From positions 78,564 to 142,563 of the IMG/VR virus record IMGVR_UViG_2595698353_000001: DNA of 64,000 bases; one strand, written 5' to 3'. Both the position numbers and the translations under genes were made by a program. The notes under the pieces are model-generated. The model made no database searches. It saw only the letters and a program-made list of their open reading frames with translations, and was not told where the DNA came from. Positions 16,948 to 61,638 of this stretch are shown piece after piece (positions within the stretch are counted from its first letter, which is position 1; each line of letters opens with the position of its first letter). The stretch comes from a virus (taxonomy: Duplodnaviria; Heunggongvirae; Uroviricota; Caudoviricetes).

Positions 16948-17279
16948 CCGACAATCCGGCGCTGTCCATCAACGTCCCGCCGGACGACTTGATGGACATG
17001 TTGATGGACATGACGATCAGCGAGACCGAGAAGGCGATCCGCGAGCGCGTGCGCGCGGCCGTCGACGACCAGCTGGGCCAGCTGATCAAGCAGACCGTCG
17101 CCCGCAAGTTCGGTAGCCCGGCCACGCGCGTGGACCTCGCGATGTCGATCGAGAAGGCCGTCGACGCGGTCGCCACCTCGGTCCGCCGGTTCCCCGGGGC
17201 CGCGAACGACGGCATGCTCGAGTCCGCCGTCGCGTCCGCCATCATGAACGTCTTCCAGAAGGAGCGCAGCGCCCAGTGA
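16944..17279 (+). CDS. hypothetical protein (111 aa)
   Basis: GTG overlaps the upstream stop (GTGA). In frame with track ORF 16497-17279. Confidence 0.55.
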   Translation: MTDNPALSINVPPDDLMDMLMDMTISETEKAIRERVRAAVDDQLGQLIKQTVARKFGSPATRVDLAMSIEKAVDAVATSVRRFPGAANDGMLESAVASAIMNVFQKERSAQ

Positions 17280-18472
17280 CCGAGCCCCTCGAGTTCGACT
17301 TCGACCAGGTCGTCCGCCGGTTCAAGGATGCGGTCCCCCGCGTCCCGGACAGCGCGCGCTTCCCGATCACCGAGGCCAAGGGCACCGGCCTGATGGACTT
17401 CGCCGACGCCCGCTGGCTGACCGACCTCAACGCCGAGGCCGTCACGCTCGGCCACAACAACGACGGCGTCCGGCACGGCATCAGCCAGCAGATGCTGCAC
17501 CTGTGGTTCTCCGACCCCGACGCGTACCTCCAGCGGATCCAGGTCGAGTACCCGGCCGAGCTGGTCAAGCAGTTCGAGCAGGAGACCGGCCGCCACGGCC
17601 AGCAGCAGGTGCTGCCGCTGTCCTCCCTGGACGAGGCGTACGCGCTCGCGGTGCACCTGACCGAGGGCGACTACATGCAGGGCGACGCGATGATCGGGCT
17701 CGTCAACATGGGGCGGCCGACACCGCTGCTCACCCGCACCGCCCGGCTGGTGCCCGGCGGCGGATCCCCGGCGAAGCAGATCGAGTCCAACAAGATCGGC
17801 GCGATCGTCGTCCGGCTGGTCGCCGACAGCGGCGAGGCCGTCGACCACGACTTCCTCGCCGAGCTGTACCGGGAGGCCCTCGAGCGCAACATCTCGGTGA
17901 TCTTCGACGAGTCGACGACCGCGTTCGGCCGCACCGGCGGCCTGGTCCACCAGTCCCTCGCCGACTTCGCCGGGCTCGAGCCGTTCCTGACCATCCTCGG
18001 GCCGTCTGGCGGCGGCGGGATGCCGTACGCGGCGCTGATCGGCCACCGCGACGCCTTCAACCTGATGCGGCACCGCCGCAACCCGACCGCGCTCAACCCG
18101 ATGTCGATGGCGGCGGCAATGGCCGTCCTCAACCAGATGGGCGATGGGCTGTACGAGAACGTCCGCAGGCGCGGCGAGCAGCTGCGCACCGAGGCGGCCC
18201 AGATCGTCAGCCAGCACCGCTGGATCGAGAGCCTGCGGGGAGAAGGCCTGTTGCTCGGGCTGCGGATCTCGCTCTTCAGCCATGCCCGCCGCCTGGTCGA
18301 GGTCGCCCGCGAGCAGGGCCTGCATCTGGTCATCGCCGAGGACGACATCGGCACCGTCCGGCTCTGGCCGCACCTGACCGTCTCCGAGAAGGAGGTCGGC
18401 GAGATCGTCGACGCTCTCTACGAGGCGTGCCTCGTCGTCGGCACCGAGCTGCATCCGCTCACCGGCACGTAG
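17276..18472 (+). CDS. class-III aminotransferase-like protein (catalytic Lys apparently replaced)
   Basis: IFDESTTAFGRTG matches the AT-III DEVQTGFGRTG signature. The expected TLAKALGGG (PLP-Lys) aligns to TILGPSGGGG, which has no Lys. Confidence 0.65.
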   Translation: MTEPLEFDFDQVVRRFKDAVPRVPDSARFPITEAKGTGLMDFADARWLTDLNAEAVTLGHNNDGVRHGISQQMLHLWFSDPDAYLQRIQVEYPAELVKQFEQETGRHGQQQVLPLSSLDEAYALAVHLTEGDYMQGDAMIGLVNMGRPTPLLTRTARLVPGGGSPAKQIESNKIGAIVVRLVADSGEAVDHDFLAELYREALERNISVIFDESTTAFGRTGGLVHQSLADFAGLEPFLTILGPSGGGGMPYAALIGHRDAFNLMRHRRNPTALNPMSMAAAMAVLNQMGDGLYENVRRRGEQLRTEAAQIVSQHRWIESLRGEGLLLGLRISLFSHARRLVEVAREQGLHLVIAEDDIGTVRLWPHLTVSEKEVGEIVDALYEACLVVGTELHPLTGT

Positions 18473-52288: not shown

Positions 52289-52711
52289 ATGAGCTACCAC
52301 CTGCCCGCCAACTGGTCCGAGATCCTCCGGAGCGTCCAGAGCGGCTTCGTCTTCCGCTCCCAGCGCATCGGGGTCCAGGCCTTCCAGGTCGCGGTCTGCG
52401 GCGACCCCCGCCGTGAGCTGACCGACCACGAGAGCCCGTTCGCGGCCGAGATCATCGAGTCGTACGACTGCCTGCACCGCGACTACATGTGCGGTGGCCG
52501 CGAGTTCGCGCTGCGCCCGACCGACGTCGTGTACGTCGTCAAGCGCGACGGGATCCCGCTGGCGTACGTCACCCGCGAGGGCAAGGTCAAGATCAACCGC
52601 AGCGCCATTCGCGAGCACAAGCGCTGCCGGGACGCGCTCCGCCGCCTGGAGGGCTCGCTCGTCCTCTGCGGCCGCGCCTACGCCGGACGCGACAAGGCCT
52701 ACTGGCTGTAA
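52289..52711 (+). CDS. hypothetical protein (140 aa)
   Basis: Internal ATG of track ORF 52172-52711, directly after leader CCAACCACTCAAGGAG. Confidence 0.5.
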   Translation: MSYHLPANWSEILRSVQSGFVFRSQRIGVQAFQVAVCGDPRRELTDHESPFAAEIIESYDCLHRDYMCGGREFALRPTDVVYVVKRDGIPLAYVTREGKVKINRSAIREHKRCRDALRRLEGSLVLCGRAYAGRDKAYWL

Positions 52712-52759
52712 CCCGCACGCCCACCCCAAGGAGTCACCTATCGGAAGGACGCCGTCACC

Positions 52760-53662
52760 ATGAAGGTCTATTTCTCAGCCGAGTACACCGCAGCGAAATA
52801 CTCGTTCGACACGACCCGCAAGTCGCGGGACGTCGCGCTGTCGCTGTTCGATCGCCCGATCGACGGCGTCAAGCTGGTCAAGCCCAAGCGGCTGGGCAGC
52901 AAGCAGCTGCTGCTGGCGCACGACGCGAACTACGTCGACGCGGTGCTCACCGGCCAGCCGAAGGATCTCGCGGAGTCGCAGGGCTTCAGCTGGGATCCGG
53001 GGCTGTGGACCTCGGTGACGGCGTCCAGCGCGGGCATGGTCCGTGCCGCGCTCGAGGCGCTGCAGACCGGCGTCGCGGGCACCCTGTCCTCGGGCCTGCA
53101 CCACGCCCGCCGGGACCTCGGCGCGGGCTTCTGCACCTTCAACGGGCTGGCGCTGGCCGCGAAGTATGCCCTGCGGGAGCCCGGGGTCGAGCGGGTGCTG
53201 ATCGTCGACTTCGACGCCCACTGCGGTGGCGGCACCGAGTCGATCATCCGGGACAACGGCCGGATCATCCAGGTGGACGTGTCGACCGACGACTTCGACG
53301 CATACCAGTCGACGCCGACGGCGCAGCTCAAGCTCGTCGACAACCCGGACCGGTACCTCTCGGAGTGCGGCGCGGCACTGAGCCGGGCCGACCGGCTCGG
53401 CAGCTACGACCTGGTGCTCTACAACGCCGGGATGGACCCGCACGAGGACTGCATCGTCGGCGGCCTGCAGGGCGTCACGCGGGAGATACTCGCGGCGCGC
53501 GAGCGCCTGGTCTTCCAGTGGGCCGCGCTGCGGGGCCACCCGATCGCGTTCGCGCTGGCCGGTGGCTACACCAGTGCACTCCTGCCGGTCGACGACCTGG
53601 TCGACCTGCACCGACTGACCGTCCTCGCGGCGGCCGAGCACGCCGCCCTGGCAACTGTCTGA
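52760..53662 (+). CDS. histone-deacetylase-family (arginase/deacetylase fold) protein
   Basis: HHARRDLGAGFCTFNGLALAA resembles HHGDG..GFC.NDIA. IVDFDAHCGGGTE resembles DLDVHHGDGTQ. YNAGMDPHEDC and LAGGYT also match. Confidence 0.65.
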   Translation: MKVYFSAEYTAAKYSFDTTRKSRDVALSLFDRPIDGVKLVKPKRLGSKQLLLAHDANYVDAVLTGQPKDLAESQGFSWDPGLWTSVTASSAGMVRAALEALQTGVAGTLSSGLHHARRDLGAGFCTFNGLALAAKYALREPGVERVLIVDFDAHCGGGTESIIRDNGRIIQVDVSTDDFDAYQSTPTAQLKLVDNPDRYLSECGAALSRADRLGSYDLVLYNAGMDPHEDCIVGGLQGVTREILAARERLVFQWAALRGHPIAFALAGGYTSALLPVDDLVDLHRLTVLAAAEHAALATV

Positions 53663-53677
53663 ACCAACGGAGGAAAG

Positions 53678-54160
53678 ATGAGCTTCGACTTCACGCACAG
53701 CACCGACAAGGCGCTGGAGATGACGCGCCAGGTCATGCTGCAGTCCGACTCGAACTACACCGGCAGCGAGTACCAGATCGCCCTTGACGCTGAGATCGAG
53801 CGGCGCAGGGTGGCTTCCTGGGAAGGCCAGCGGCCGAACCGCGTGATCGAGATGATCCTCACCACCTACGCCCGGAAGGTGTCCAGGCGTGCGGAGGTCG
53901 ACGCGTCGGTCGTGGATCGGATGGCTGACGACCTGCTCGGCCTGCTCGAGTCGGAGGGCTATGGCGACCTCGCCTCCTTCGAAGTGCCCATCCCGGTGGT
54001 GGGTCGGCCCCGCGTCGACTTCCCCGTCGGCGAGGCGGTGAAGATCTTCGAGGAGGCGTCCACGAGGACGGCGTCTCGGTCGCAGGTCGCCGTCGGCGTC
54101 CTGGCCGTCCTCTCCGAAGTGGCGGCTCGTCAGGCGCTGAAGCAGGCTGCTAGGGTGTAG
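53678..54160 (+). CDS. hypothetical protein (160 aa)
   Basis: RBS GGAGGAAAG. Confidence 0.5.
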   Translation: MSFDFTHSTDKALEMTRQVMLQSDSNYTGSEYQIALDAEIERRRVASWEGQRPNRVIEMILTTYARKVSRRAEVDASVVDRMADDLLGLLESEGYGDLASFEVPIPVVGRPRVDFPVGEAVKIFEEASTRTASRSQVAVGVLAVLSEVAARQALKQAARV

Positions 54161-54285
54161 TCAGTCACCACGGAGCCCCGGCCATAACGGCCGGGGCTTG
54201 CGTGTGTCCGGGGCCGGATCGTGTCTGGTAGCCCGGGGGTCGTGTCAAGGGGTAGTCCACGCCGGAGTACCCCAGGAGCGCCGCA

Positions 54286-57200
54286 ATGATCTATCGCACC
54301 CTCAAGGTCGACTTCGCCCGCGCCGTGACCCGCACCGGTTCTCACGATCGGGTGGAGGTGGCCATCCGCCCCCTCGACACCACGCACAGCCCGATCGACG
54401 GGGCGACGTACATCGATGGCCCGGCGGCTCAGACCATGGTGCTCTCGGAGGCCAAGAACACCGTCGAGTTCCGGCTGGTGCCGTCGTACGCGGAGGGCCT
54501 GACCGAGCCGGTGCTCTACCGAGCCTCGTGGCGTGTCGGTCTGACCGGTCGACTCGAGACCGTCGAGTTCTCCATGCCGAACATGGACGTCACGCTGGCG
54601 CAGCTGCAGGACATGGGCGAGATCATCGGCGAGCTGCCCTACCTGAAGGAGGGCGACCTCGGCGTCCCGGGTCGCGTCGCCCGACTCAACGACCAGGGCA
54701 AGGTCATCGACGCGTTCGGCAACATCGTCGACGGCTCCGGCAGCGCGGTCGAGCTCGGCCAGCGCCTCGACCTCGAGATCGCGAACCGGCAGAGTGCCGA
54801 CGCCGCCCTGAACACGTCGCTGTCGAACGAGATCTCCAACCGGGTCACCTCGGTCACCACCGCATTCCAGAACCTGCTCAGCGCGCAGATCGGCTCGGTC
54901 GTCTCGACCGCCAACGCCGACCGCGCGAGCATGGGCTCCGGCCTGGCCATCGCCAACGGCAGGATCATCTCCATCGAGGCGACGCTGCCGAAGAAGGCCG
55001 ACCTCGTCGACGGCCGCCTGCCGCTGTCGCAGGCCCCGCTCGTCCAGCTCGGCCAGGTGCATGCGGCCACGAACCAGGCAGCCATGCTCGGCCTGACCGG
55101 CGTCGCGGTCGGCGACGTCTGCCTGCGGCCGGACGGCTCGTGGATGCTCACCGCGCAGCCGCCGTCGTTGCTGAAGAACTGGACCCAGATCACCTCGCCA
55201 TCCGACACCGTGATGTCGGTCAACGGCAAGATCGGCGTGGTCACCCTGACGGCCGCCGACGTCGGCGCGTGGTCGAACGCGACCCTGCTGCCGCAGAACG
55301 CCATTCAGTCGCTGCCGACGGACCTCGCGACGATCCGACAGAACGTCGCTGCGCACACGGTCACCCTCTCGAGCGCGGTGCTCGTCAATGAGACCGGCAT
55401 GATCGACGACGCCAAGCTGTCGGGCTCGGTCGCCTTCCTCAACAGCCAGAACCAGGTCGTGAACAAGGCCGGGCAGGTCGTCATCGTCTCCGGCAACGTC
55501 TCGTCGGTGAACGGCAAGTCCGGCGCGGTGGTGCTCAAGGCCTCCGACGTCGGCGCGGTGGGCGTCGGCTCGCAGATCTCGATGTCGTACGTCACCGGCC
55601 TGGTGCTCGCGCTGCAGGAGAAGGTCGGAATCAACGACGCGTCGGTCACCAACGCGCGCACGCCGCTGTCGCACGCCGCGAGCCACAGCTTCGGCGGCCA
55701 GGATCCGCTCACCCCGGCCGCCATCGGCGCGCTCGCGGCCAACGCGCAGATCCCGCAGAGCCAGATCACCGGCCTGCTCACGGACATGGCGCTGAAGGCG
55801 AGCCAGTCCGACCTGCAGATCACCAACAACCAGGTCCAGAAGAACACGATCGACATCGCCAGCCTCATCGCGGGCGGCGGCGGCAGTGGCGGCGGCGGGA
55901 TCGCAGGCAACGTCGTCTCGTGGGCCAACGGCTCGTCGACGAACCCGTACACCGCGAGCATCATGTCTCCGTTCGGCTGGAGCTCGGCGAACGGCTACTA
56001 CTACAACGCCGAGGGCGCGGCGGCGGGCGAGGCTGTCTGGCCGTACATCACCCCGAACGGTCGGCTCGAGCTGCGCAGGGTCAACCACAGCGCGCCGGTG
56101 GATCCGGCCCCGGCGACGGCCACCGACATCGCGGCCGTCCAGGGGCAGATCGACACCGTCAACGGCAAGATCCCGGGCCTGGCGACCAAGACGGCGCTGG
56201 ACAGCACCAACTCGAACGTCGCGGGGATCTCGACGGCCATCACCCTGCTGGCACCGCTGGCCAGCCCGACGTTCACCGGCACCGCCTCGACGCCCGCCCT
56301 GCGTGTCACCGGCGGCACGCTGGCGGCTGGCCGGGTGCTCACCTCGGACGCGTCCGGCAACGCGACGTGGCAGGCCGTCCCGGTCGTCTCGGTGGCGGGC
56401 AAGACCGGCGCGGTGGTGCTGGCTCAGTCCGACATCACCGGGCTCGTCTCGGACCTCGGCGCGAAGGCCGACAGGGCCAACCCGACGTTCACTGGCACCA
56501 CGACGATCTCGGCCCTGCGCGTCACTGGCGGCTCGCTGGGCGCGGGCAAGACCCTGATCTCCGACGCCTCGGGCAACGCGACGTGGCAGGTGCCGCCGAG
56601 CGCCCCCGTGTCCTCGGTGTCCGGGCACACCGGAGACGTCACCCTGGTGCCGTCGGACGTCGTCGGCCTGTCGACGCTGATGAACGCGAAGGCCGATCTC
56701 GTCGGCGGCGTGATCCGCTCCGACCAGATCCCGGCCCTGGCTATGCACACCGTTGTCACGGCCGCCTCTCAGGCTGACATGCTCGCGCTGACCACCTCCC
56801 AGGTGCAGCGCGGCGATATGTGCATCATCACCGGCGGCGCTGAGCGCGGCAACTACATCCTCACGGCGGACAGCCCGGCGATCCTGTCGAACTGGGTGCC
56901 GCTGGTGCTGCCCGCGCAGGCCGTCTCCTCGGTCAACGGCAAGACCGGCGTCGCGGTCCTGTCGGCCGCCGACGTCGGAGCCATCGCCACCGGCGCGATG
57001 ATCCCGCAGTCCCAGATCACCGGCCTGCTCACGGATCTCGGCGGGAAGGCTGACAGCTCGGCGCTGGCCAACTACCTGTCCAAGACCGAGGCGCAGGCGC
57101 AGTCGACGACGAAGAACACCGTGAAGTACGCGGCCACCAGCAGCGTGACGAGCCTGTCGGGCACCTCGACGCTGATCGACAGCCGGACCCTGGTCGCCGG

Positions 57201-57771
57201 AGACCGCGTGCTGCTGCCGGTCCAGTCCTCGAGCAAGGACAACGGCATCTGGGTCGTCCAGTCCGGCGCGTGGACCCGCCCGGCCGACATGCCGACGAGC
57301 AGCATCGTCGTCACCGGCACGCAGGTGATCGTCACCGACGGCGCGACGCTGGCCAACACGGTCTGGCAGATGAACGGCACGACGAGCACCAACGTCGGCA
57401 CCACGCCGCAGACGTGGACCAAGTCGCTCGTCGCCGGTCCGCCGGTCGCGTACACCAGCGGCCCGGGCATCCAGATCGTCGGCAACACGGTGTCGTCGAA
57501 CTACGGCGACGGCCTGAAGGTGGTCGGCCAGCAGCTGACCGTCGACCCGGATGTGGTCGCGCGCAAGAAGGTCATCCCGATCACCCAGACCACGAAGACG
57601 GTCACGCTGACGCATAACCTCAACACGCAGTTCGTCTGGGTCTCGATCATCGACAACCAGACCAGCAGCATCGTGCTGGCGGGCGCTACCGTCTCCACGG
57701 CGAACGCGGTCTCCGTCGAGTTCGAGGTCGCTCCGACGTCCACCCAGTACACCGCCGTCGTCTTCGGTTAA
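54286..57771 (+). CDS. large tail-fibre-like protein with five phage tail-fibre repeats (1161 aa)
   Basis: Repeated SVNGK(I/S/T)G(A/V)VxLxAxDVGA units. NPTFTGT(A/T)S..ALRVTGG motifs are shared with 4482-5141. Confidence 0.7.
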   Translation: MIYRTLKVDFARAVTRTGSHDRVEVAIRPLDTTHSPIDGATYIDGPAAQTMVLSEAKNTVEFRLVPSYAEGLTEPVLYRASWRVGLTGRLETVEFSMPNMDVTLAQLQDMGEIIGELPYLKEGDLGVPGRVARLNDQGKVIDAFGNIVDGSGSAVELGQRLDLEIANRQSADAALNTSLSNEISNRVTSVTTAFQNLLSAQIGSVVSTANADRASMGSGLAIANGRIISIEATLPKKADLVDGRLPLSQAPLVQLGQVHAATNQAAMLGLTGVAVGDVCLRPDGSWMLTAQPPSLLKNWTQITSPSDTVMSVNGKIGVVTLTAADVGAWSNATLLPQNAIQSLPTDLATIRQNVAAHTVTLSSAVLVNETGMIDDAKLSGSVAFLNSQNQVVNKAGQVVIVSGNVSSVNGKSGAVVLKASDVGAVGVGSQISMSYVTGLVLALQEKVGINDASVTNARTPLSHAASHSFGGQDPLTPAAIGALAANAQIPQSQITGLLTDMALKASQSDLQITNNQVQKNTIDIASLIAGGGGSGGGGIAGNVVSWANGSSTNPYTASIMSPFGWSSANGYYYNAEGAAAGEAVWPYITPNGRLELRRVNHSAPVDPAPATATDIAAVQGQIDTVNGKIPGLATKTALDSTNSNVAGISTAITLLAPLASPTFTGTASTPALRVTGGTLAAGRVLTSDASGNATWQAVPVVSVAGKTGAVVLAQSDITGLVSDLGAKADRANPTFTGTTTISALRVTGGSLGAGKTLISDASGNATWQVPPSAPVSSVSGHTGDVTLVPSDVVGLSTLMNAKADLVGGVIRSDQIPALAMHTVVTAASQADMLALTTSQVQRGDMCIITGGAERGNYILTADSPAILSNWVPLVLPAQAVSSVNGKTGVAVLSAADVGAIATGAMIPQSQITGLLTDLGGKADSSALANYLSKTEAQAQSTTKNTVKYAATSSVTSLSGTSTLIDSRTLVAGDRVLLPVQSSSKDNGIWVVQSGAWTRPADMPTSSIVVTGTQVIVTDGATLANTVWQMNGTTSTNVGTTPQTWTKSLVAGPPVAYTSGPGIQIVGNTVSSNYGDGLKVVGQQLTVDPDVVARKKVIPITQTTKTVTLTHNLNTQFVWVSIIDNQTSSIVLAGATVSTANAVSVEFEVAPTSTQYTAVVFG

Positions 57772-57802
57772 TACATTGAGTAGCAACAGTTTTGGAGGAA
57801 AG

Positions 57803-60379
57803 ATGCCCGGGATGAAGCGCCTGCGCCACCAGTCGCACGCCGAGCGACGCTTCGACGAGCAGGCGGCCGCGATCGAGGGCAGCGCCCCGAAGCCGGTGAA
57901 CCACCGCGCTGCGTACGATCGCCTCCCCACGGACGCGCCGGTGGCCCGACCGCGCCGCCAGGCCTCGGGCTACGAGCCGCACCCCGACGTCACGTGGGCG
58001 CGGCGGCAGCACGGCGTCGCGCATACCACCGGCGGCCGCATGCTGCCGCTCAACGTGACCGCGAGCTACGAGGACCAGGAAGCCCGGATGGCCGACCAGT
58101 CCGGCTGGGACCGGCACGTGTCGTTCGCGCCGTCGCAGCCGATGATCCAGGGCGCGCAGGCGTATTCGGCGAAGGCCGGTCTGGGAGACCCGCACGGCTA
58201 CGGCTACGACCACGTCCGGCAGACCCCGGAGACGGTGCGCACGGTCGGTCGCCACTACGACGCGCTGCCGACGTACGACGAGCGCGCCATCCCGCACTAC
58301 GAGGCGCTGCGCAACGAGGTCAACAACCAGTACCACCACCTGACCAACGGCATGGGCGTCAACGTGCAGAGCGTCGACCACGACCCGTACGCCGATGTGC
58401 ACGAGATGATGCACGACCTCACCAACAACAACCGGCTGAAGGTCCTCGGCACCCGCGTGACCGGCTCCCACCCGTTCTTCAGCGACGACGAGAACGACAA
58501 GTTCCGCGCGGTGCACGACGCATTCGGCCACGCCGCGACCGGGCGCTCGTTCGACCGGCACGGCGAGCAGGCTGCGTACCTCGCGCACAGCCAGATGTTC
58601 ACGCCGAAGGCGCGCGGCGCGCTCGCGACCGAGACCAAGGGGCAGAACAGCTCCCTGATCCTCAACGGCCAGTTCGGTCCGCAGAAGCTCGCGATCATGG
58701 ACCCGCAGCACTGGAACGACTCGTCGCTGTCTGGCATCAAGCCGCCGTCGGCCCCGAAGATGCCCGGCGTCCCGAGCCTGTCGGCCTCGCGCCGCCGGTC
58801 CTACTTCGACTTCCCGGTCGACTTCGCGTTCCGCCGTCGGGCCGACCTGCTGCAGGACGCCCCGGACATGCCGAAGCCCCCGTCGGCGGCCCCGGCCCCG
58901 ATGACCGCACCGACCCCGGCACCCGCACCGGCCGCGCCGACCGACGACGACGTCCTCAAGAGCAAGGGCGTCACCTACAACCAGATGCTCGACAACCTTC
59001 AGTCGCACTACGATTCGGCGACGCCGGAGCAGAAGATGCGCGGCCGCGTCTGGTACAAGGCTGGCTCGGACACGATGAAGGACATCGCGTCGCTGACCGG
59101 CAAGTCGGTGCGCAAGTCGATCGCCACGGCGGCCGCGCTGTCGGCCCGCACCGACTGGCGCGACAACGTCCAGTACGCGGCGCACTTCCTCAACAGCTAC
59201 AACCCGGACGACCCGGACAACGAGAACCGCTGGCGGCTGCCGCAGATCCACCCGGAGGCGATGGCCAAGTACATGGAGCGCTACGGCGAGGAGCCGGGCG
59301 TCCACGACGACCAGTTCACGCACAAGGAGCTCAAGGGGCTCTACAACCAGGGCATGATGCCGCGCACCGTCAACGACTTCCGCACGCTGGCCAAGCTGCA
59401 CGGCGACATCGTGAGCCGGGACGACAATGGCGTGCCGCGCATGGACAAGCGGACGGGGCAGCCGATCCCGCACCAGATGTCGGCCCTCGCCACCGACCCG
59501 GCGGCCCAGGACGAGTGGATCAAGGCCGTGCGCGACCACGGCTACCAGAGCGTCGTCGATGCGCACATGCGTGCGGTGAAGGACACCACCGGCAAGCGGC
59601 ACCCGGGCGGCTACGAGCCGACCGGCGACGAGAAGGCCGACGCGAAGGCGCTCGTGAAGTACTTCTCGCCGACCTCGACGTTCCGTGGTGCCGGTCTGCC
59701 CACCACCGGCGGAAACATCAACATCGCGAAGAAGATTCACGATGCGCCGGACACCGACGAGGCGATGGCGGCCATCCTCGGCGGCGACAAGTACAACGCC
59801 TTCAACAACAACCTCACCGACCACCTGGACTTCCGCGAGCCCCGTGCGGGTGACCCGGACGACGTCGGCTACTACGACCACCCGGGCGGCAACTGGGAGA
59901 ACCACGACCCGCGAGATCTGCTGGGCACCATCGACACTCAGCACATGCGCGCGTCGTCGGCCCCGGCCGGTGGCACCCCGCTGAACTACGCCGAGGGCAG
60001 CCAGATCAACCCGGACCTGTACAAGGTGTACGCGAAGGGCCTGGTGGACCTCACGCGCCGGATCAACGCGAAGGAGGCGGACCCGGCCAAGCACATCCTG
60101 CCCAAGCAGGTTCAGGCCGTCGTCTGGGGCACCTTCAAGGACGCGATGAATGCGCAGAAGAAGGAGCGCCAGCAGACGTACTGGGCTCCGGGCATCAGCG
60201 ACCAGTTCGAGCCGCACCAGACGCGGTACCTGAGCCGCGTCGCGGGCTTCGTCGACCACGATCTGCTGCACCCGACGAACACCGACCCGAAGCACCCGGA
60301 GTCGCACGAGTGGTGGAATAAGGTCGTGGACAGCTGGATCGCTCGCCACCTCGGCGGACACAATCAGGAGGGGTTCTGA
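57803..60379 (+). CDS. large multidomain protein with HExxH zincin-like motif (858 aa)
   Basis: DVHEMMHDL plus downstream AVHDAFGH. Pro/Ala-rich linker. Start at ATG after GGAGGAAAG. Track ORF begins at 57776. Confidence 0.55.
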   Translation: MPGMKRLRHQSHAERRFDEQAAAIEGSAPKPVNHRAAYDRLPTDAPVARPRRQASGYEPHPDVTWARRQHGVAHTTGGRMLPLNVTASYEDQEARMADQSGWDRHVSFAPSQPMIQGAQAYSAKAGLGDPHGYGYDHVRQTPETVRTVGRHYDALPTYDERAIPHYEALRNEVNNQYHHLTNGMGVNVQSVDHDPYADVHEMMHDLTNNNRLKVLGTRVTGSHPFFSDDENDKFRAVHDAFGHAATGRSFDRHGEQAAYLAHSQMFTPKARGALATETKGQNSSLILNGQFGPQKLAIMDPQHWNDSSLSGIKPPSAPKMPGVPSLSASRRRSYFDFPVDFAFRRRADLLQDAPDMPKPPSAAPAPMTAPTPAPAPAAPTDDDVLKSKGVTYNQMLDNLQSHYDSATPEQKMRGRVWYKAGSDTMKDIASLTGKSVRKSIATAAALSARTDWRDNVQYAAHFLNSYNPDDPDNENRWRLPQIHPEAMAKYMERYGEEPGVHDDQFTHKELKGLYNQGMMPRTVNDFRTLAKLHGDIVSRDDNGVPRMDKRTGQPIPHQMSALATDPAAQDEWIKAVRDHGYQSVVDAHMRAVKDTTGKRHPGGYEPTGDEKADAKALVKYFSPTSTFRGAGLPTTGGNINIAKKIHDAPDTDEAMAAILGGDKYNAFNNNLTDHLDFREPRAGDPDDVGYYDHPGGNWENHDPRDLLGTIDTQHMRASSAPAGGTPLNYAEGSQINPDLYKVYAKGLVDLTRRINAKEADPAKHILPKQVQAVVWGTFKDAMNAQKKERQQTYWAPGISDQFEPHQTRYLSRVAGFVDHDLLHPTNTDPKHPESHEWWNKVVDSWIARHLGGHNQEGF

Positions 60380-61638
60380 TGCTGGGAGACCGTGTGCGCC
60401 GCCACCATTCGGCGCGGGCCGACCGAATCGCGGCCGACGTCCACACCGCCGACCTACCGAAGACGCAGAAGTGCGAGTACTGCGACGAGCAGGCCACCCA
60501 GCGGGTGATCCACTCCGAGGGCATGGCGTACATCCCGTGCTGTGACGCGCACCTCGAGGACGCCGAGAACGACGCCGCCCACTGCGTGCCGGGCGACGAG
60601 CCGGACCCCAGCAACGTCGACCGGGTGGAGAAGATCTCGGCGTGCTTCACCGAGGACGAGATGCGCGCCATCGCCCGCGACGGCGCGGAGGCGCACCCCG
60701 AGCTGGTGCGAGAGATGGGGCAGGCGCTCGAGGCCGCCGGGATCACCCGGAAGGCCGCCATCCCGGACGGCTACCAGGTCCACCTGATGAACACGTCGGG
60801 GTACGGCGGCGGCATCGCTGGCCTCTACCCGAAGGGCATCAAGCCGACTGGCGGCAACTGGCACAGCGCCATCGCCTGGGACAACCAGGGCAAGATCGAC
60901 AACATCGACACCAAGCCTCGGCACCAGGGGAAGGGCCTGGCGCGGTCGCTCTACGACCACGTGAAGAGCACCTGGCGTCCCGACCTGATGCACGATCGCT
61001 CACTCACGTCCGACGGCAAGGCATTCTCCCAGGCCGTGGGCGGACAGATGTTCGACAACGACGAGTGGGAGCGCCGGTACCAGCAGAACCAGGACGAGAA
61101 GAAGATGCCGTGGGAAGACAGGGACAAGCTGTGGCGGTCTCGCGGCTGGCCGGACATCACCGACGTGTGGACGCCCAACCGGCAGGCGGCGGCCGACCAG
61201 GAGTACTGGATGGACCACCGCGCGCCGACGAACGACGGCTACTGCGCGCCGATGCACGCGCTGCACCAGATGATCCCGGATGTCCACGAGCGCCCGCAGG
61301 ACTACCACGGCGGCACGGTGCCGGAGAACCTGTCGGCCATCCGGCGGTCGAAGGATAGCCCGGACACCAAGGTGAAGATCTACCGTGCCATGCCGCGCCA
61401 GGGCCGGGGCGGGTACGCGATCAACCCGGGTGACTGGGTGACCACGAACCGCGAGTACGCGGTGCTGCATGGGCTCGGCGGCGAGGAGGACGGCCGCAAC
61501 ATGCCGGTCGTCCAGGCCACCGTCCCGGCGAAGCACCTGTACTCCGACGGCAACTCGCTCGAGGAGTGGGGATACGACCCCGGCCACGAGACGCCCAAGC
61601 CAGCGATCGTCGTGACCCGACCCACGAGGGGACTCTGA
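60379..61638 (+). CDS. protein with N-terminal zinc finger, GNAT-like acetyltransferase motif and unknown C-terminal domain
   Basis: CEYCDE...CCDAH. AIAWDNQGKIDNIDTKPRHQGKGLARSLY matches GNAT motif A (Q/R-x-x-G-x-G/A). ATG overlaps the upstream stop. Confidence 0.5.
   Translation: MLGDRVRRHHSARADRIAADVHTADLPKTQKCEYCDEQATQRVIHSEGMAYIPCCDAHLEDAENDAAHCVPGDEPDPSNVDRVEKISACFTEDEMRAIARDGAEAHPELVREMGQALEAAGITRKAAIPDGYQVHLMNTSGYGGGIAGLYPKGIKPTGGNWHSAIAWDNQGKIDNIDTKPRHQGKGLARSLYDHVKSTWRPDLMHDRSLTSDGKAFSQAVGGQMFDNDEWERRYQQNQDEKKMPWEDRDKLWRSRGWPDITDVWTPNRQAAADQEYWMDHRAPTNDGYCAPMHALHQMIPDVHERPQDYHGGTVPENLSAIRRSKDSPDTKVKIYRAMPRQGRGGYAINPGDWVTTNREYAVLHGLGGEEDGRNMPVVQATVPAKHLYSDGNSLEEWGYDPGHETPKPAIVVTRPTRGL

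Follow-up and report, generated by a model that had tools for sequence, protein, structure and literature searches.

Introduction

What would a lytic bacteriophage do with a protein of the histone deacetylase (HDAC) family? The question is raised by gp202, a gene of Rhodococcus phage E3 (HM114277 / NC_021347, 142,563 bp), a singleton myovirus that is lytic on R. equi. The 64,000-nucleotide stretch of DNA analysed here, termed the window (IMG/VR record IMGVR_UViG_2595698353_000001, positions 78,564 to 142,563), is 100% identical to the right-hand 64 kb of the E3 genome. An earlier note on the window placed a protein resembling HDACs and acetylpolyamine amidohydrolases (APAHs) at 52760–53662 on the plus strand, and the listing of open reading frames (ORFs) returns exactly this frame, with 300 amino acids (aa). 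The four motifs quoted in favour of that call, HHARRDLGAGFCTFNG, VDFDAHCGGGTE, YNAGMDPHEDC, and LAGGYT, are all present in the translation.

The gene product is already named "putative histone deacetylase protein" in GenBank and RefSeq. The HDAC-family call is thus not new, and because it is public, neither is the finding as first stated. New here are the subfamily to which gp202 belongs, its conserved variant second shell of the active site, its gene neighbourhoods in phages and bacteria, and a distribution among phages that is wider than cultured genomes suggest.

Family and Fold of gp202

gp202 matches the Hist_deacetyl profile of Pfam (PF00850) with E = 5.1e-32 and 111.8 bits, the curated cut-off being 27.9 bits, and the match spans profile positions 22–285 of 298. 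The profile search that the earlier note had proposed as a check therefore returns the deacetylase family. When gp202 is compared with the PDB by phmmer, the best match is VcHdaH (9GKV/9GKY; E = 1e-33), and the class IV clade A HDAC11 of Chlamydomonas (9RJE) is found at 1.6e-28. The clade B HDAC11 of Leptospira is found at 6.6e-13. HDAC6 scores ~5e-13 as a single catalytic domain and ~1e-25 as two-domain chains, and single domains of other HDAC classes, AcuC-like proteins, and APAH lie at 1e-9 to 1e-15. These E-values, together with the homologues described below, rule out that gp202 is a spurious ORF of high-GC DNA.

The AlphaFold2 model of gp202, built on an alignment of 119 sequences, has a mean predicted local distance difference score (pLDDT) of 93.9 and a predicted template modelling score (pTM) of 0.93. 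Foldseek aligns the model to VcHdaH with a template modelling score (TM) of 0.89–0.90, to Leptospira HDAC11 with 0.87, and to other classes with 0.74–0.81 (APAH and HDAC6, 0.75–0.81). It finds 456 PDB matches at E ≤ 0.001, and the best 50 of the 456 are all of the HDAC fold. gp202 is thus predicted to have the alpha/beta arginase-deacetylase fold of the HDAC superfamily, and Pfam, phmmer, AlphaFold2, and Foldseek all bear out the family and fold put forward in the earlier note.

Within the superfamily, pairwise E-values and TM scores place gp202 nearer to class IV than to class I, class II, or APAH. By both measures, the protein and its model appear to represent a distinct subfamily closest to clade A of the class IV (HDAC11-like) enzymes. 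Membership in the APAH/HDAC10 clade was considered and rejected, with phmmer E-values of 3e-9 to 5e-10, 19–20% identity, and TM scores of 0.75–0.79. AcuC and Kdac1 of Acinetobacter (8SZT) belong to the same Pfam family but are distant from gp202 (E ~3e-10, TM 0.75), and no acu-operon context was seen. gp202 has no match in PHROG or PADLOC and falls into no curated NCBIfam family, and its subfamily is likewise without a model in these three collections.

Active Site and Selection

Alignment to VcHdaH, with active-site motifs numbered after Graf et al. 2024, indicates that the metal ligands are D152 and H154 (the DxH motif) and D226 (GxD), and that D150 is the first charge-relay Asp. The Asp-His-Asp metal triad that the earlier note had set out as a check is present, as judged by this alignment and not by model geometry. 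The tandem catalytic histidines H114 and H115 and the Tyr of the xGGY motif, Y270, are in place as well (Table 1). The catalytic Tyr of xGGY polarises the transition state.

The second shell is where gp202 departs from the canonical arrangement. The His that usually follows the ligand His is replaced by C155, and the second charge-relay Asp is absent, with G157 in its place across the entire subfamily. The charge-relay Asp partners presumably correspond to D176 and D183 of HDAC8, with G157 at the equivalent of D183. The charge-relay Asp is a second-shell feature and does not define the superfamily. Together with G129, where the FND of VcHdaH reads FNG, these replacements agree with the earlier observation that several canonical residues are substituted.

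Conservation was assessed in 121 close homologues and in 78 viral and 75 genomic copies. D150, D152, H154, D226, H114, H115, and G156–G158 are invariant in all three sets. Y270 is kept in all 78 viral copies, in 120 of the 121 close homologues, and in 74 of the 75 genomic copies, and C155 is near-invariant among the close homologues (118/121). By this pattern, the replacements at positions 155 and 157 are best read as subfamily features, not decay. Between gp202 and the 96%-identical copy on a sibling phage contig, the ratio of non-synonymous to synonymous substitution rates (dN/dS) is 0.18 (21 synonymous and 11 non-synonymous changes), and gp202 is under purifying selection. Because the catalytic residues are conserved and dN/dS is low, gp202 is very probably an active HDAC-family hydrolase.

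The DAHCGGGT Subfamily

A protein search with gp202 as the query gives thousands of matches. The best 120 are 53–61% identical to gp202, save for the 96% copy of the sibling phage, and are 287–434 aa long, mostly ~295–320 aa. They share the signature FDTTRK, LAESQGFxWD, SLSSGLHHA, GxGFCTFNG, DxDAHCGGGT, YNAGMDP, and AFxLAGGY, and are named "hypothetical", "arginase family", or "AcuC-like" in the source databases. Sequence comparison thus appears to place gp202 in a tight, uncharacterised class-IV-like subfamily, denoted here by its signature DAHCGGGT, and this grouping is new.

Class IV enzymes are divided into two clades. Clade A carries HRFD, a Thr/Ser gatekeeper, and Gly at the Glu94 position, while clade B carries HPFD, a Phe/Tyr gatekeeper, and Glu94 (PMC13325672). 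At the L1 motif and the gatekeeper, gp202 agrees with neither clade: its L1 segment reads YSFD (xxFDTTRK in the subfamily) and its gatekeeper is Leu113, which is found in 117 of the 121 close homologues. Like the class IV HDACs (PDB 9RJE, 9RJD/9GZ5), gp202 has the fold, the catalytic core, and the F-D of the L1 "HPFD" motif (FDTTRK). The pocket-wall residues GFC and AGGY of Leptospira HDAC11 are identical to those of gp202. Unlike class IV, gp202 has Ser for the Pro/Arg of HPFD/HRFD and has lost the second charge-relay Asp.

The closest structural relative, VcHdaH of V. cholerae (cluster 5b of Graf et al. 2024; class IV clade A), is likewise a single domain of ~300–320 aa. It has in common with gp202 the metal ligands, the His-His pair, the Tyr of xGGY, and small residues in place of the class I RPP motif. 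These small residues before His-His, and the xGGY motif, read SSGLHH/AGGY in gp202, SGGYHH/GGGY in VcHdaH, and GGGFHH/SGGY in HDAC11. At 29% identity, the two proteins also differ in the active-site neighbourhood, with HHGDG in VcHdaH and HCGGG in gp202, Tyr and Leu, respectively, before His-His, and RRIGFPW and ESQGFSW in the L2 region. Phage members are mentioned neither in the class IV study (PMC13325672) nor in Graf et al. 2024, and no study of phage classical HDACs was found in the literature searched.

Distribution and Origin

The subfamily was traced by a pattern search combined with tblastn in one-genome-per-species GTDB contigs and in IMG/VR viral contigs. The GTDB contigs hold 529 copies, and the best 80 of these 529 loci are 49–61% identical to gp202. 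Carriers are found in Actinomycetota, Betaproteobacteria, Gemmatimonadota, Chloroflexota, Planctomycetota, Verrucomicrobiota, and Acidobacteriota, with a sporadic occurrence in bacteria. At least 89 viral copies are present in IMG/VR, at 32–51% identity to gp202 and on contigs of up to 618 kb. The 78 viral loci analysed amount to 53 variants at 90% identity.

Among deposited phages (50,697 records), E3 alone carries the subfamily. Eight further records, representing fewer distinct phages, have distant or partial HDAC-family matches. They comprise a faecal metagenomic bacteriophage record and, at 25–34% identity to gp202, the megaphages LR756501–LR756504, Microbacterium phage Magritte gp204 (OR553905), and the Staphylococcus phages MG543995/OR844993, in which the match covers only the N-terminal half and lies in unannotated sequence. 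In BFVD, homologues of gp202 come from giant viruses only. The earlier remark that a deacetylase is unusual in a phage accordingly holds for cultured phages and fails for IMG/VR, where the same subfamily is widespread.

Outside phages, gp202 is closest (61% identity) to a chromosomal gene of Rhodococcus sp. NPDC049939, which lies in a core dnaB-rplI-ssb ... GT87-ponA region. In an unbootstrapped neighbour-joining tree, gp202 groups with this gene inside a bacterial clade, and most IMG/VR copies form separate, deeper clades. Because its nearest relative is chromosomal and groups with it in the tree, the E3 copy was most likely captured from a Rhodococcus-like host. This capture appears to be independent of the aquatic phage lineages.

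Some actinobacterial copies have surroundings of their own interest. A serine recombinase lies directly upstream of the R. tukisamuensis copy (L172:7157-7873). Island-like surroundings in Mycolicibacterium fortuitum and Smaragdicoccus (L003/L005) include GmrSD, helicase-nuclease genes, a small protein with a von Willebrand factor A (vWA) domain, and DUF4192. The island-like contexts hint at spread on mobile elements, and GmrSD and the helicase genes appear to adjoin the M. fortuitum copy by chance.

Gene Neighbourhoods in Phages and Bacteria

For a survey of context, ORFs were called in 160 loci and clustered, and recurrent clusters were annotated. In all phage lineages surveyed, the HDAC gene resides in a replication or nucleotide-metabolism module. 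It adjoins a class II ribonucleotide reductase (RNR), lies between primase-helicase/ThyX and SNF2 genes, or is near a single-stranded DNA-binding protein gene. Elsewhere it follows ParB-like genes, with C5 DNA methylases and genes with a phosphoadenosine phosphosulfate (PAPS)-reductase domain nearby, or is accompanied by a dCMP deaminase. In E3, gp202 ends an extended rightward block made up of replication genes and small genes, just 5′ of the virion genes gp204–gp209. The "early region" of the earlier note is therefore roughly right as a statement of gene position, being the end of this block immediately before the virion genes.

The most striking partner in phages is a gene of ~180 aa (range, about 160–220 aa) with an HCxxGxxRS motif, the P-loop of Cys-dependent phosphatases. 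At 29 phage loci, of which 17 are distinct at 90% identity (for example, L020:9471-10001, L086:9451-9996, and L066:9424-9996), it lies directly upstream of the HDAC gene, the two being separated by -1 to 18 nt. The HDAC copies of these loci have diverged to a median of 42% identity, and the pairing is kept. Assignment to the protein tyrosine phosphatase (PTP) or dual-specificity phosphatase (DSP) family is weak, with Pfam DSPc at E = 0.005 for the representative and 1e-6 at best, and a PDB PTP at E = 0.045. The tight spacing implies that the PTP-like and HDAC genes are co-expressed, and their functions are probably coupled. No PTP-like neighbour stands beside gp202 in E3.

The sibling contig of E3 keeps the gene order gp201-gp202-gp203-gp204. 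In a 147-kb IMG/VR contig (L007), whose HDAC is 51% identical to gp202, the gene lies between a protein like the gp204 fibre protein and a protein with the C-terminal domain of gp206.

Among bacteria, only one recurrent context is informative. In ~10 betaproteobacterial genomes, the HDAC gene closes a Pot-type ABC transporter operon, which encodes a PotD/PotF-like binding protein (E = 4e-51 and 2e-48), a PotA-like ATPase that passes the TIGR01187 polyamine PotA cut-off, and two permeases, with a MocR-type regulator upstream. The polyamine-transport context is found in two loci of uncultured Betaproteobacteria (L124:5780-17635 and L135) and also in L093, L121, L130, L133, L134, and L146. In L124 and L135, the operon is followed at its 3′ side by a glutamine-synthetase-like gene, an omega-aminotransferase (PRK07480, above cut-off), and a second PotF-type transporter. 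The glutamine-synthetase-like product is PuuA/SpuB-like, scoring 198 bits, below cut-off, with the gamma-glutamylputrescine synthetase model. In L124, the synthetase-like gene is preceded by one for a PuuD/SpuA-like hydrolase (200 bits, below cut-off). The cluster resembles the spu polyamine-utilisation cluster of Pseudomonas. The betaproteobacterial orthologues are 52–54% identical to gp202 and keep the full signature, and their context lends modest extra weight to polyamines as the substrate.

Proposed Function and Alternatives

The explanation favoured here, which as a whole is tentative, is that gp202 is a competent Zn2+-dependent amidohydrolase, derived from the host, that acts on acetylated polyamine-like amines. 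The enzyme would be expressed with the genes of the replication module. A Zn-bound water activated by H114/H115 would attack the amide carbonyl, itself polarised by Zn and Y270, and the fine details of catalysis may differ because the Asp partner of the second His is absent. The bond hydrolysed would be an N-acyl amide on a small cationic amine and not on a peptide, with N-acetylated polyamines such as acetylputrescine and acetylspermidine as the likeliest substrates. The products would be acetate and free polyamine, which would enlarge the pool available for DNA replication, condensation, packaging, and translation.

That the substrate is of the polyamine type is possible, although doubtful when taken on its own. 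The proposal is made because of the affinity to clade A, the polyamine clusters around bacterial orthologues, the precedent of giant-virus APAHs, the existence of phage spermidine acetyltransferases, and the replication-module position. Clade A enzymes, VcHdaH included, have no or very weak activity on acyl-lysine peptides, and their substrates are suspected to be non-peptidic, with polyamines among the candidates (PMC13325672). Giant viruses encode functional APAHs that release spermidine (Li et al. 2023, PMC9992855). Viral APAHs are described only in Imitervirales and none in phages, where spermidine N-acetyltransferases are known (PMC9992855). The APAHs (Mycoplana ramosa APAH, 3Q9B/3Q9C; Pseudomonas ApaH; those of giant viruses) belong to the same superfamily as gp202 and share its chemistry, and the placement of bacterial gp202 orthologues in clusters for polyamine uptake and catabolism is what would be expected of an APAH-like enzyme. 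The position in the replication module is consistent with the polyamine demand of DNA synthesis and packaging.

Several observations weigh against a polyamine amidohydrolase. gp202 lies outside the APAH and HDAC10 clades (phmmer E ~3e-9, TM 0.75–0.79) and is ~40 aa shorter than the 341-aa APAH. In the SSG before His-His and in the AGGY motif, gp202 is similar to class IV fatty-acid deacylases, whose "foot pocket" is open, so the acyl group may be longer than acetyl. G157 stands where an Asp normally orients the general-base His. No phage locus surveyed, E3 included, has polyamine genes nearby, and the phage neighbours fit a role directed at proteins or nucleic acids at least as well. The bacterial polyamine context is also narrow. 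Because its copies are 62–70% identical to each other, and Comamonadaceae-like, it is essentially one lineage and counts as a single evolutionary event or a few. Elsewhere in bacteria, the surroundings mostly say little or differ: TetR; MerR with vWA; in Mycobacteriales, vWA with small genes; and, in Thermoleophilia-like metagenome-assembled genomes, housekeeping genes.

The main rival, which is rather unlikely, is that gp202 is a protein lysine deacylase, an eraser of post-translational modifications that would clear lysines in host or phage proteins of their acyl groups, whether acetyl or longer. Its candidate targets would include nucleoid proteins, RNA polymerase, acetyl-CoA synthetase, and defence effectors, and the effect would be to reprogram the cell or undo a host response. 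Lysine deacylation is the best-known activity of the superfamily. In class IV, the clade B enzymes act as fatty-acid deacylases and VcHdaH is a weak de-decanoylase (Graf et al. 2024; PMC13325672). gp202 has SSG-L-HH and AGGY, the small-residue motifs by which the class IV foot pocket is opened. The PTP-like pairing at 29 loci suggests a module that would "dephosphorylate plus deacylate", and a place among replication genes fits DNA-associated protein targets. However, gp202 is far nearer to clade A (1e-33, 1.6e-28), which is inactive or nearly so on peptides, than to clade B (6.6e-13). The PTP-like assignment is itself weak, and E3 has neither a PTP-like neighbour nor an annotated acetyltransferase.

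The last point bears on another claim of the earlier note, which took the protein at 60379–61638 (gp206) to be GNAT-like. gp206 has no Pfam match at E ≤ 0.01 and matches phrog_2579, "ParB C-terminal domain", with E = 4e-190; its Q/RxxGxG-like string is no evidence of a GNAT fold. No acetyltransferase is found among the annotations of the whole E3 genome. Because gp206 is not a GNAT protein by profile search and no acetyltransferase is annotated, an acetyltransferase/deacetylase pair in E3 is unsupported and was set aside. As to gp206 itself, its C-terminal ~75 aa (aa 325–399: IYRA...GDWVTT...EEWGY) are 49% identical to the protein directly downstream of the L007 HDAC gene, and the sibling contig of E3 encodes a much longer counterpart (734 aa vs 419 aa).

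An amidase for some other small molecule or polymer is quite unlikely. The substrate could be an N-acetylated intermediate of the cell envelope or of sugars, a metabolite or antibiotic amide, a DNA-modification intermediate, or a defence signal. The HDAC fold handles diverse non-protein amides, as illustrated by the structures of propanil and dimethoate hydrolases in the VcHdaH study (Graf et al. 2024). The phage neighbours (C5 methylases, ParB-like, PAPS-reductase, dCMP deaminase, ThyX, RNR) provide DNA-modification and nucleotide contexts, and Rhodococcus chromosomal copies lie near genes for a GT87-family glycosyltransferase and penicillin-binding proteins. The heterogeneity of bacterial contexts is what is expected of a versatile stand-alone hydrolase. 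However, no pathway partner is conserved across the lineages surveyed, and a signature kept so strictly across phyla and phages points to a single substrate that is common and widely available. No DNA-hypermodification pathway is known to use an HDAC-fold deacetylase, which also counts against this alternative. Membership of a defence system was rejected, as gp201, gp202, gp203, and gp206 have no PADLOC match.

That gp202 is a pseudoenzyme, either without catalytic activity or with a scaffolding role, or a decaying passenger that does nothing for the phage, is very improbable: the second charge-relay Asp has become Gly, the adjacent His has become Cys, and the gene is missing from nearly all cultured phages (50,697 records), but the substitutions are subfamily-wide, the ligands and both His are invariant in more than 270 sequences, dN/dS is 0.18, the model is of high confidence, and the subfamily is kept in at least 53 distinct phage variants.

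Other Features of the Locus

The positions of gp202, its motifs, and its immediate neighbours are collected in Table 1. gp202 starts with ATG, the first in-frame start codon after the preceding stop. A scan for promoters and terminators around gp202 gave nothing useful.

Table 1. Positions of gp202, its active-site elements, and adjacent features (window numbering, except where gp202 residues are given).
Feature	Position	Strand	Basis or remark
gp201, hypothetical, 140 aa, immediately upstream of gp202	52289..52711	+	not a conserved partner
GGAAGGA, Shine-Dalgarno-like, 9 nt 5′ of gp202 ATG	52744..52750	+	read from sequence
gp202 coding sequence, 300-aa HDAC-family (class-IV-like) zinc hydrolase (predicted)	52760..53662	+	ORF, Pfam, phmmer/PDB, AlphaFold2, Foldseek, GenBank annotation
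Codons of tandem catalytic His H114-H115 (predicted), motif SSGLHHA	53099..53104	+	aligned to SGGYHH of VcHdaH
Codons of D150-F-D152-A-H154-C155-G-G157-G-T159	53207..53236	+	VDFDAHCGGGT aligned to VcHdaH IDSDVHHGDGT
Codon of D226, third metal ligand (predicted), in YNAGMDP	53435..53437	+	YNAGMD aligned to LYDAGVD of VcHdaH
Codons of A267-G-G-Y270, xGGY motif, catalytic Tyr Y270 (predicted)	53558..53569	+	aligned to GGGY 291-294 of VcHdaH
Motif HHARRDLGAGFCTFNG	gp202 aa 114-129		
Motif VDFDAHCGGGTE	gp202 aa 149-160		
Motif YNAGMDPHEDC	gp202 aa 221-231		
Motif LAGGYT	gp202 aa 266-271		
gp203, hypothetical, 160 aa, starts 15 nt past gp202 stop, own GGAGGA ribosome-binding site	53678..54160	+	sequence

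gp201 has no Pfam, PHROG, or PADLOC match and no homologue among the 160 related loci, and it adjoins an HDAC gene elsewhere only in the E3 sibling contig. gp203 is probably co-transcribed with gp202 because of the short gap between them and its own ribosome-binding site; it has no significant family match in Pfam, PHROG, or PADLOC and no homologue beside other HDAC copies. With no family matches and no homologues in the 160 related loci, gp201 and gp203 were rejected as conserved operon partners. The gene downstream of the R. tukisamuensis HDAC copy is unrelated to gp203, and the small genes 5′ of mycobacterial HDAC copies, considered as possible partners, are likewise unrelated.

Downstream, gp204 (window 54286–57771) is a virion or tail-fibre protein of 1161 aa with at least five copies of an ~18-aa motif, S-V-N/S/A-G-K/H-x-G-x-V-x-L-x-x-x-D-V/I-x-G. 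The 1266-aa opposite-strand ORF that overlaps it (54130–57930) is a high-GC artefact. gp205 (window 57776–60379) is an 867-aa virion "structural protein" with a DUF7178 segment at aa 393–474. A cluster of large proteins (~950 aa) is encoded no more than 10 kb from the HDAC gene at 27 viral loci; one member matches gp205 (L076, 49% identity over 154 aa), and one representative has no Pfam match. In the E3 replication module, gp145 (window 17276–18472, record 95839–97035) is annotated as an aminotransferase and looks metabolic.

Significance

Classical HDAC-fold enzymes are essentially unstudied in phages, and what gp202 adds comes via its context. It is the cultured, lytic-phage member of a subfamily with representatives in dozens of uncultured phage lineages. 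E3 thereby offers a culturable system in which a substrate could be assigned to an orphan class-IV-like clade, and gp202 could reveal whether phages manipulate pools of acetyl-polyamines or acylated proteins. Its activity could also explain the conserved pair of PTP-like and HDAC-like genes.

A broader reading, which is somewhat unlikely, is that the DAHCGGGT subfamily is an unrecognised phage-borne branch of class-IV-like deacylases that serves as a general "eraser" at the infection stage, in either of two ways. gp202 and its relatives could be the first phage polyamine deacetylases, the counterpart of phage spermidine N-acetyltransferases and giant-virus APAHs. Alternatively, paired with the PTP-like phosphatase that many phages encode beside them, they could remove acyl as well as phosphoryl marks, either from DNA-associated targets of host or phage or from a defence signal. 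If an eraser of either kind is correct, E3 gp202 would be the only member of the subfamily in a phage-host system that is cultured and tractable.

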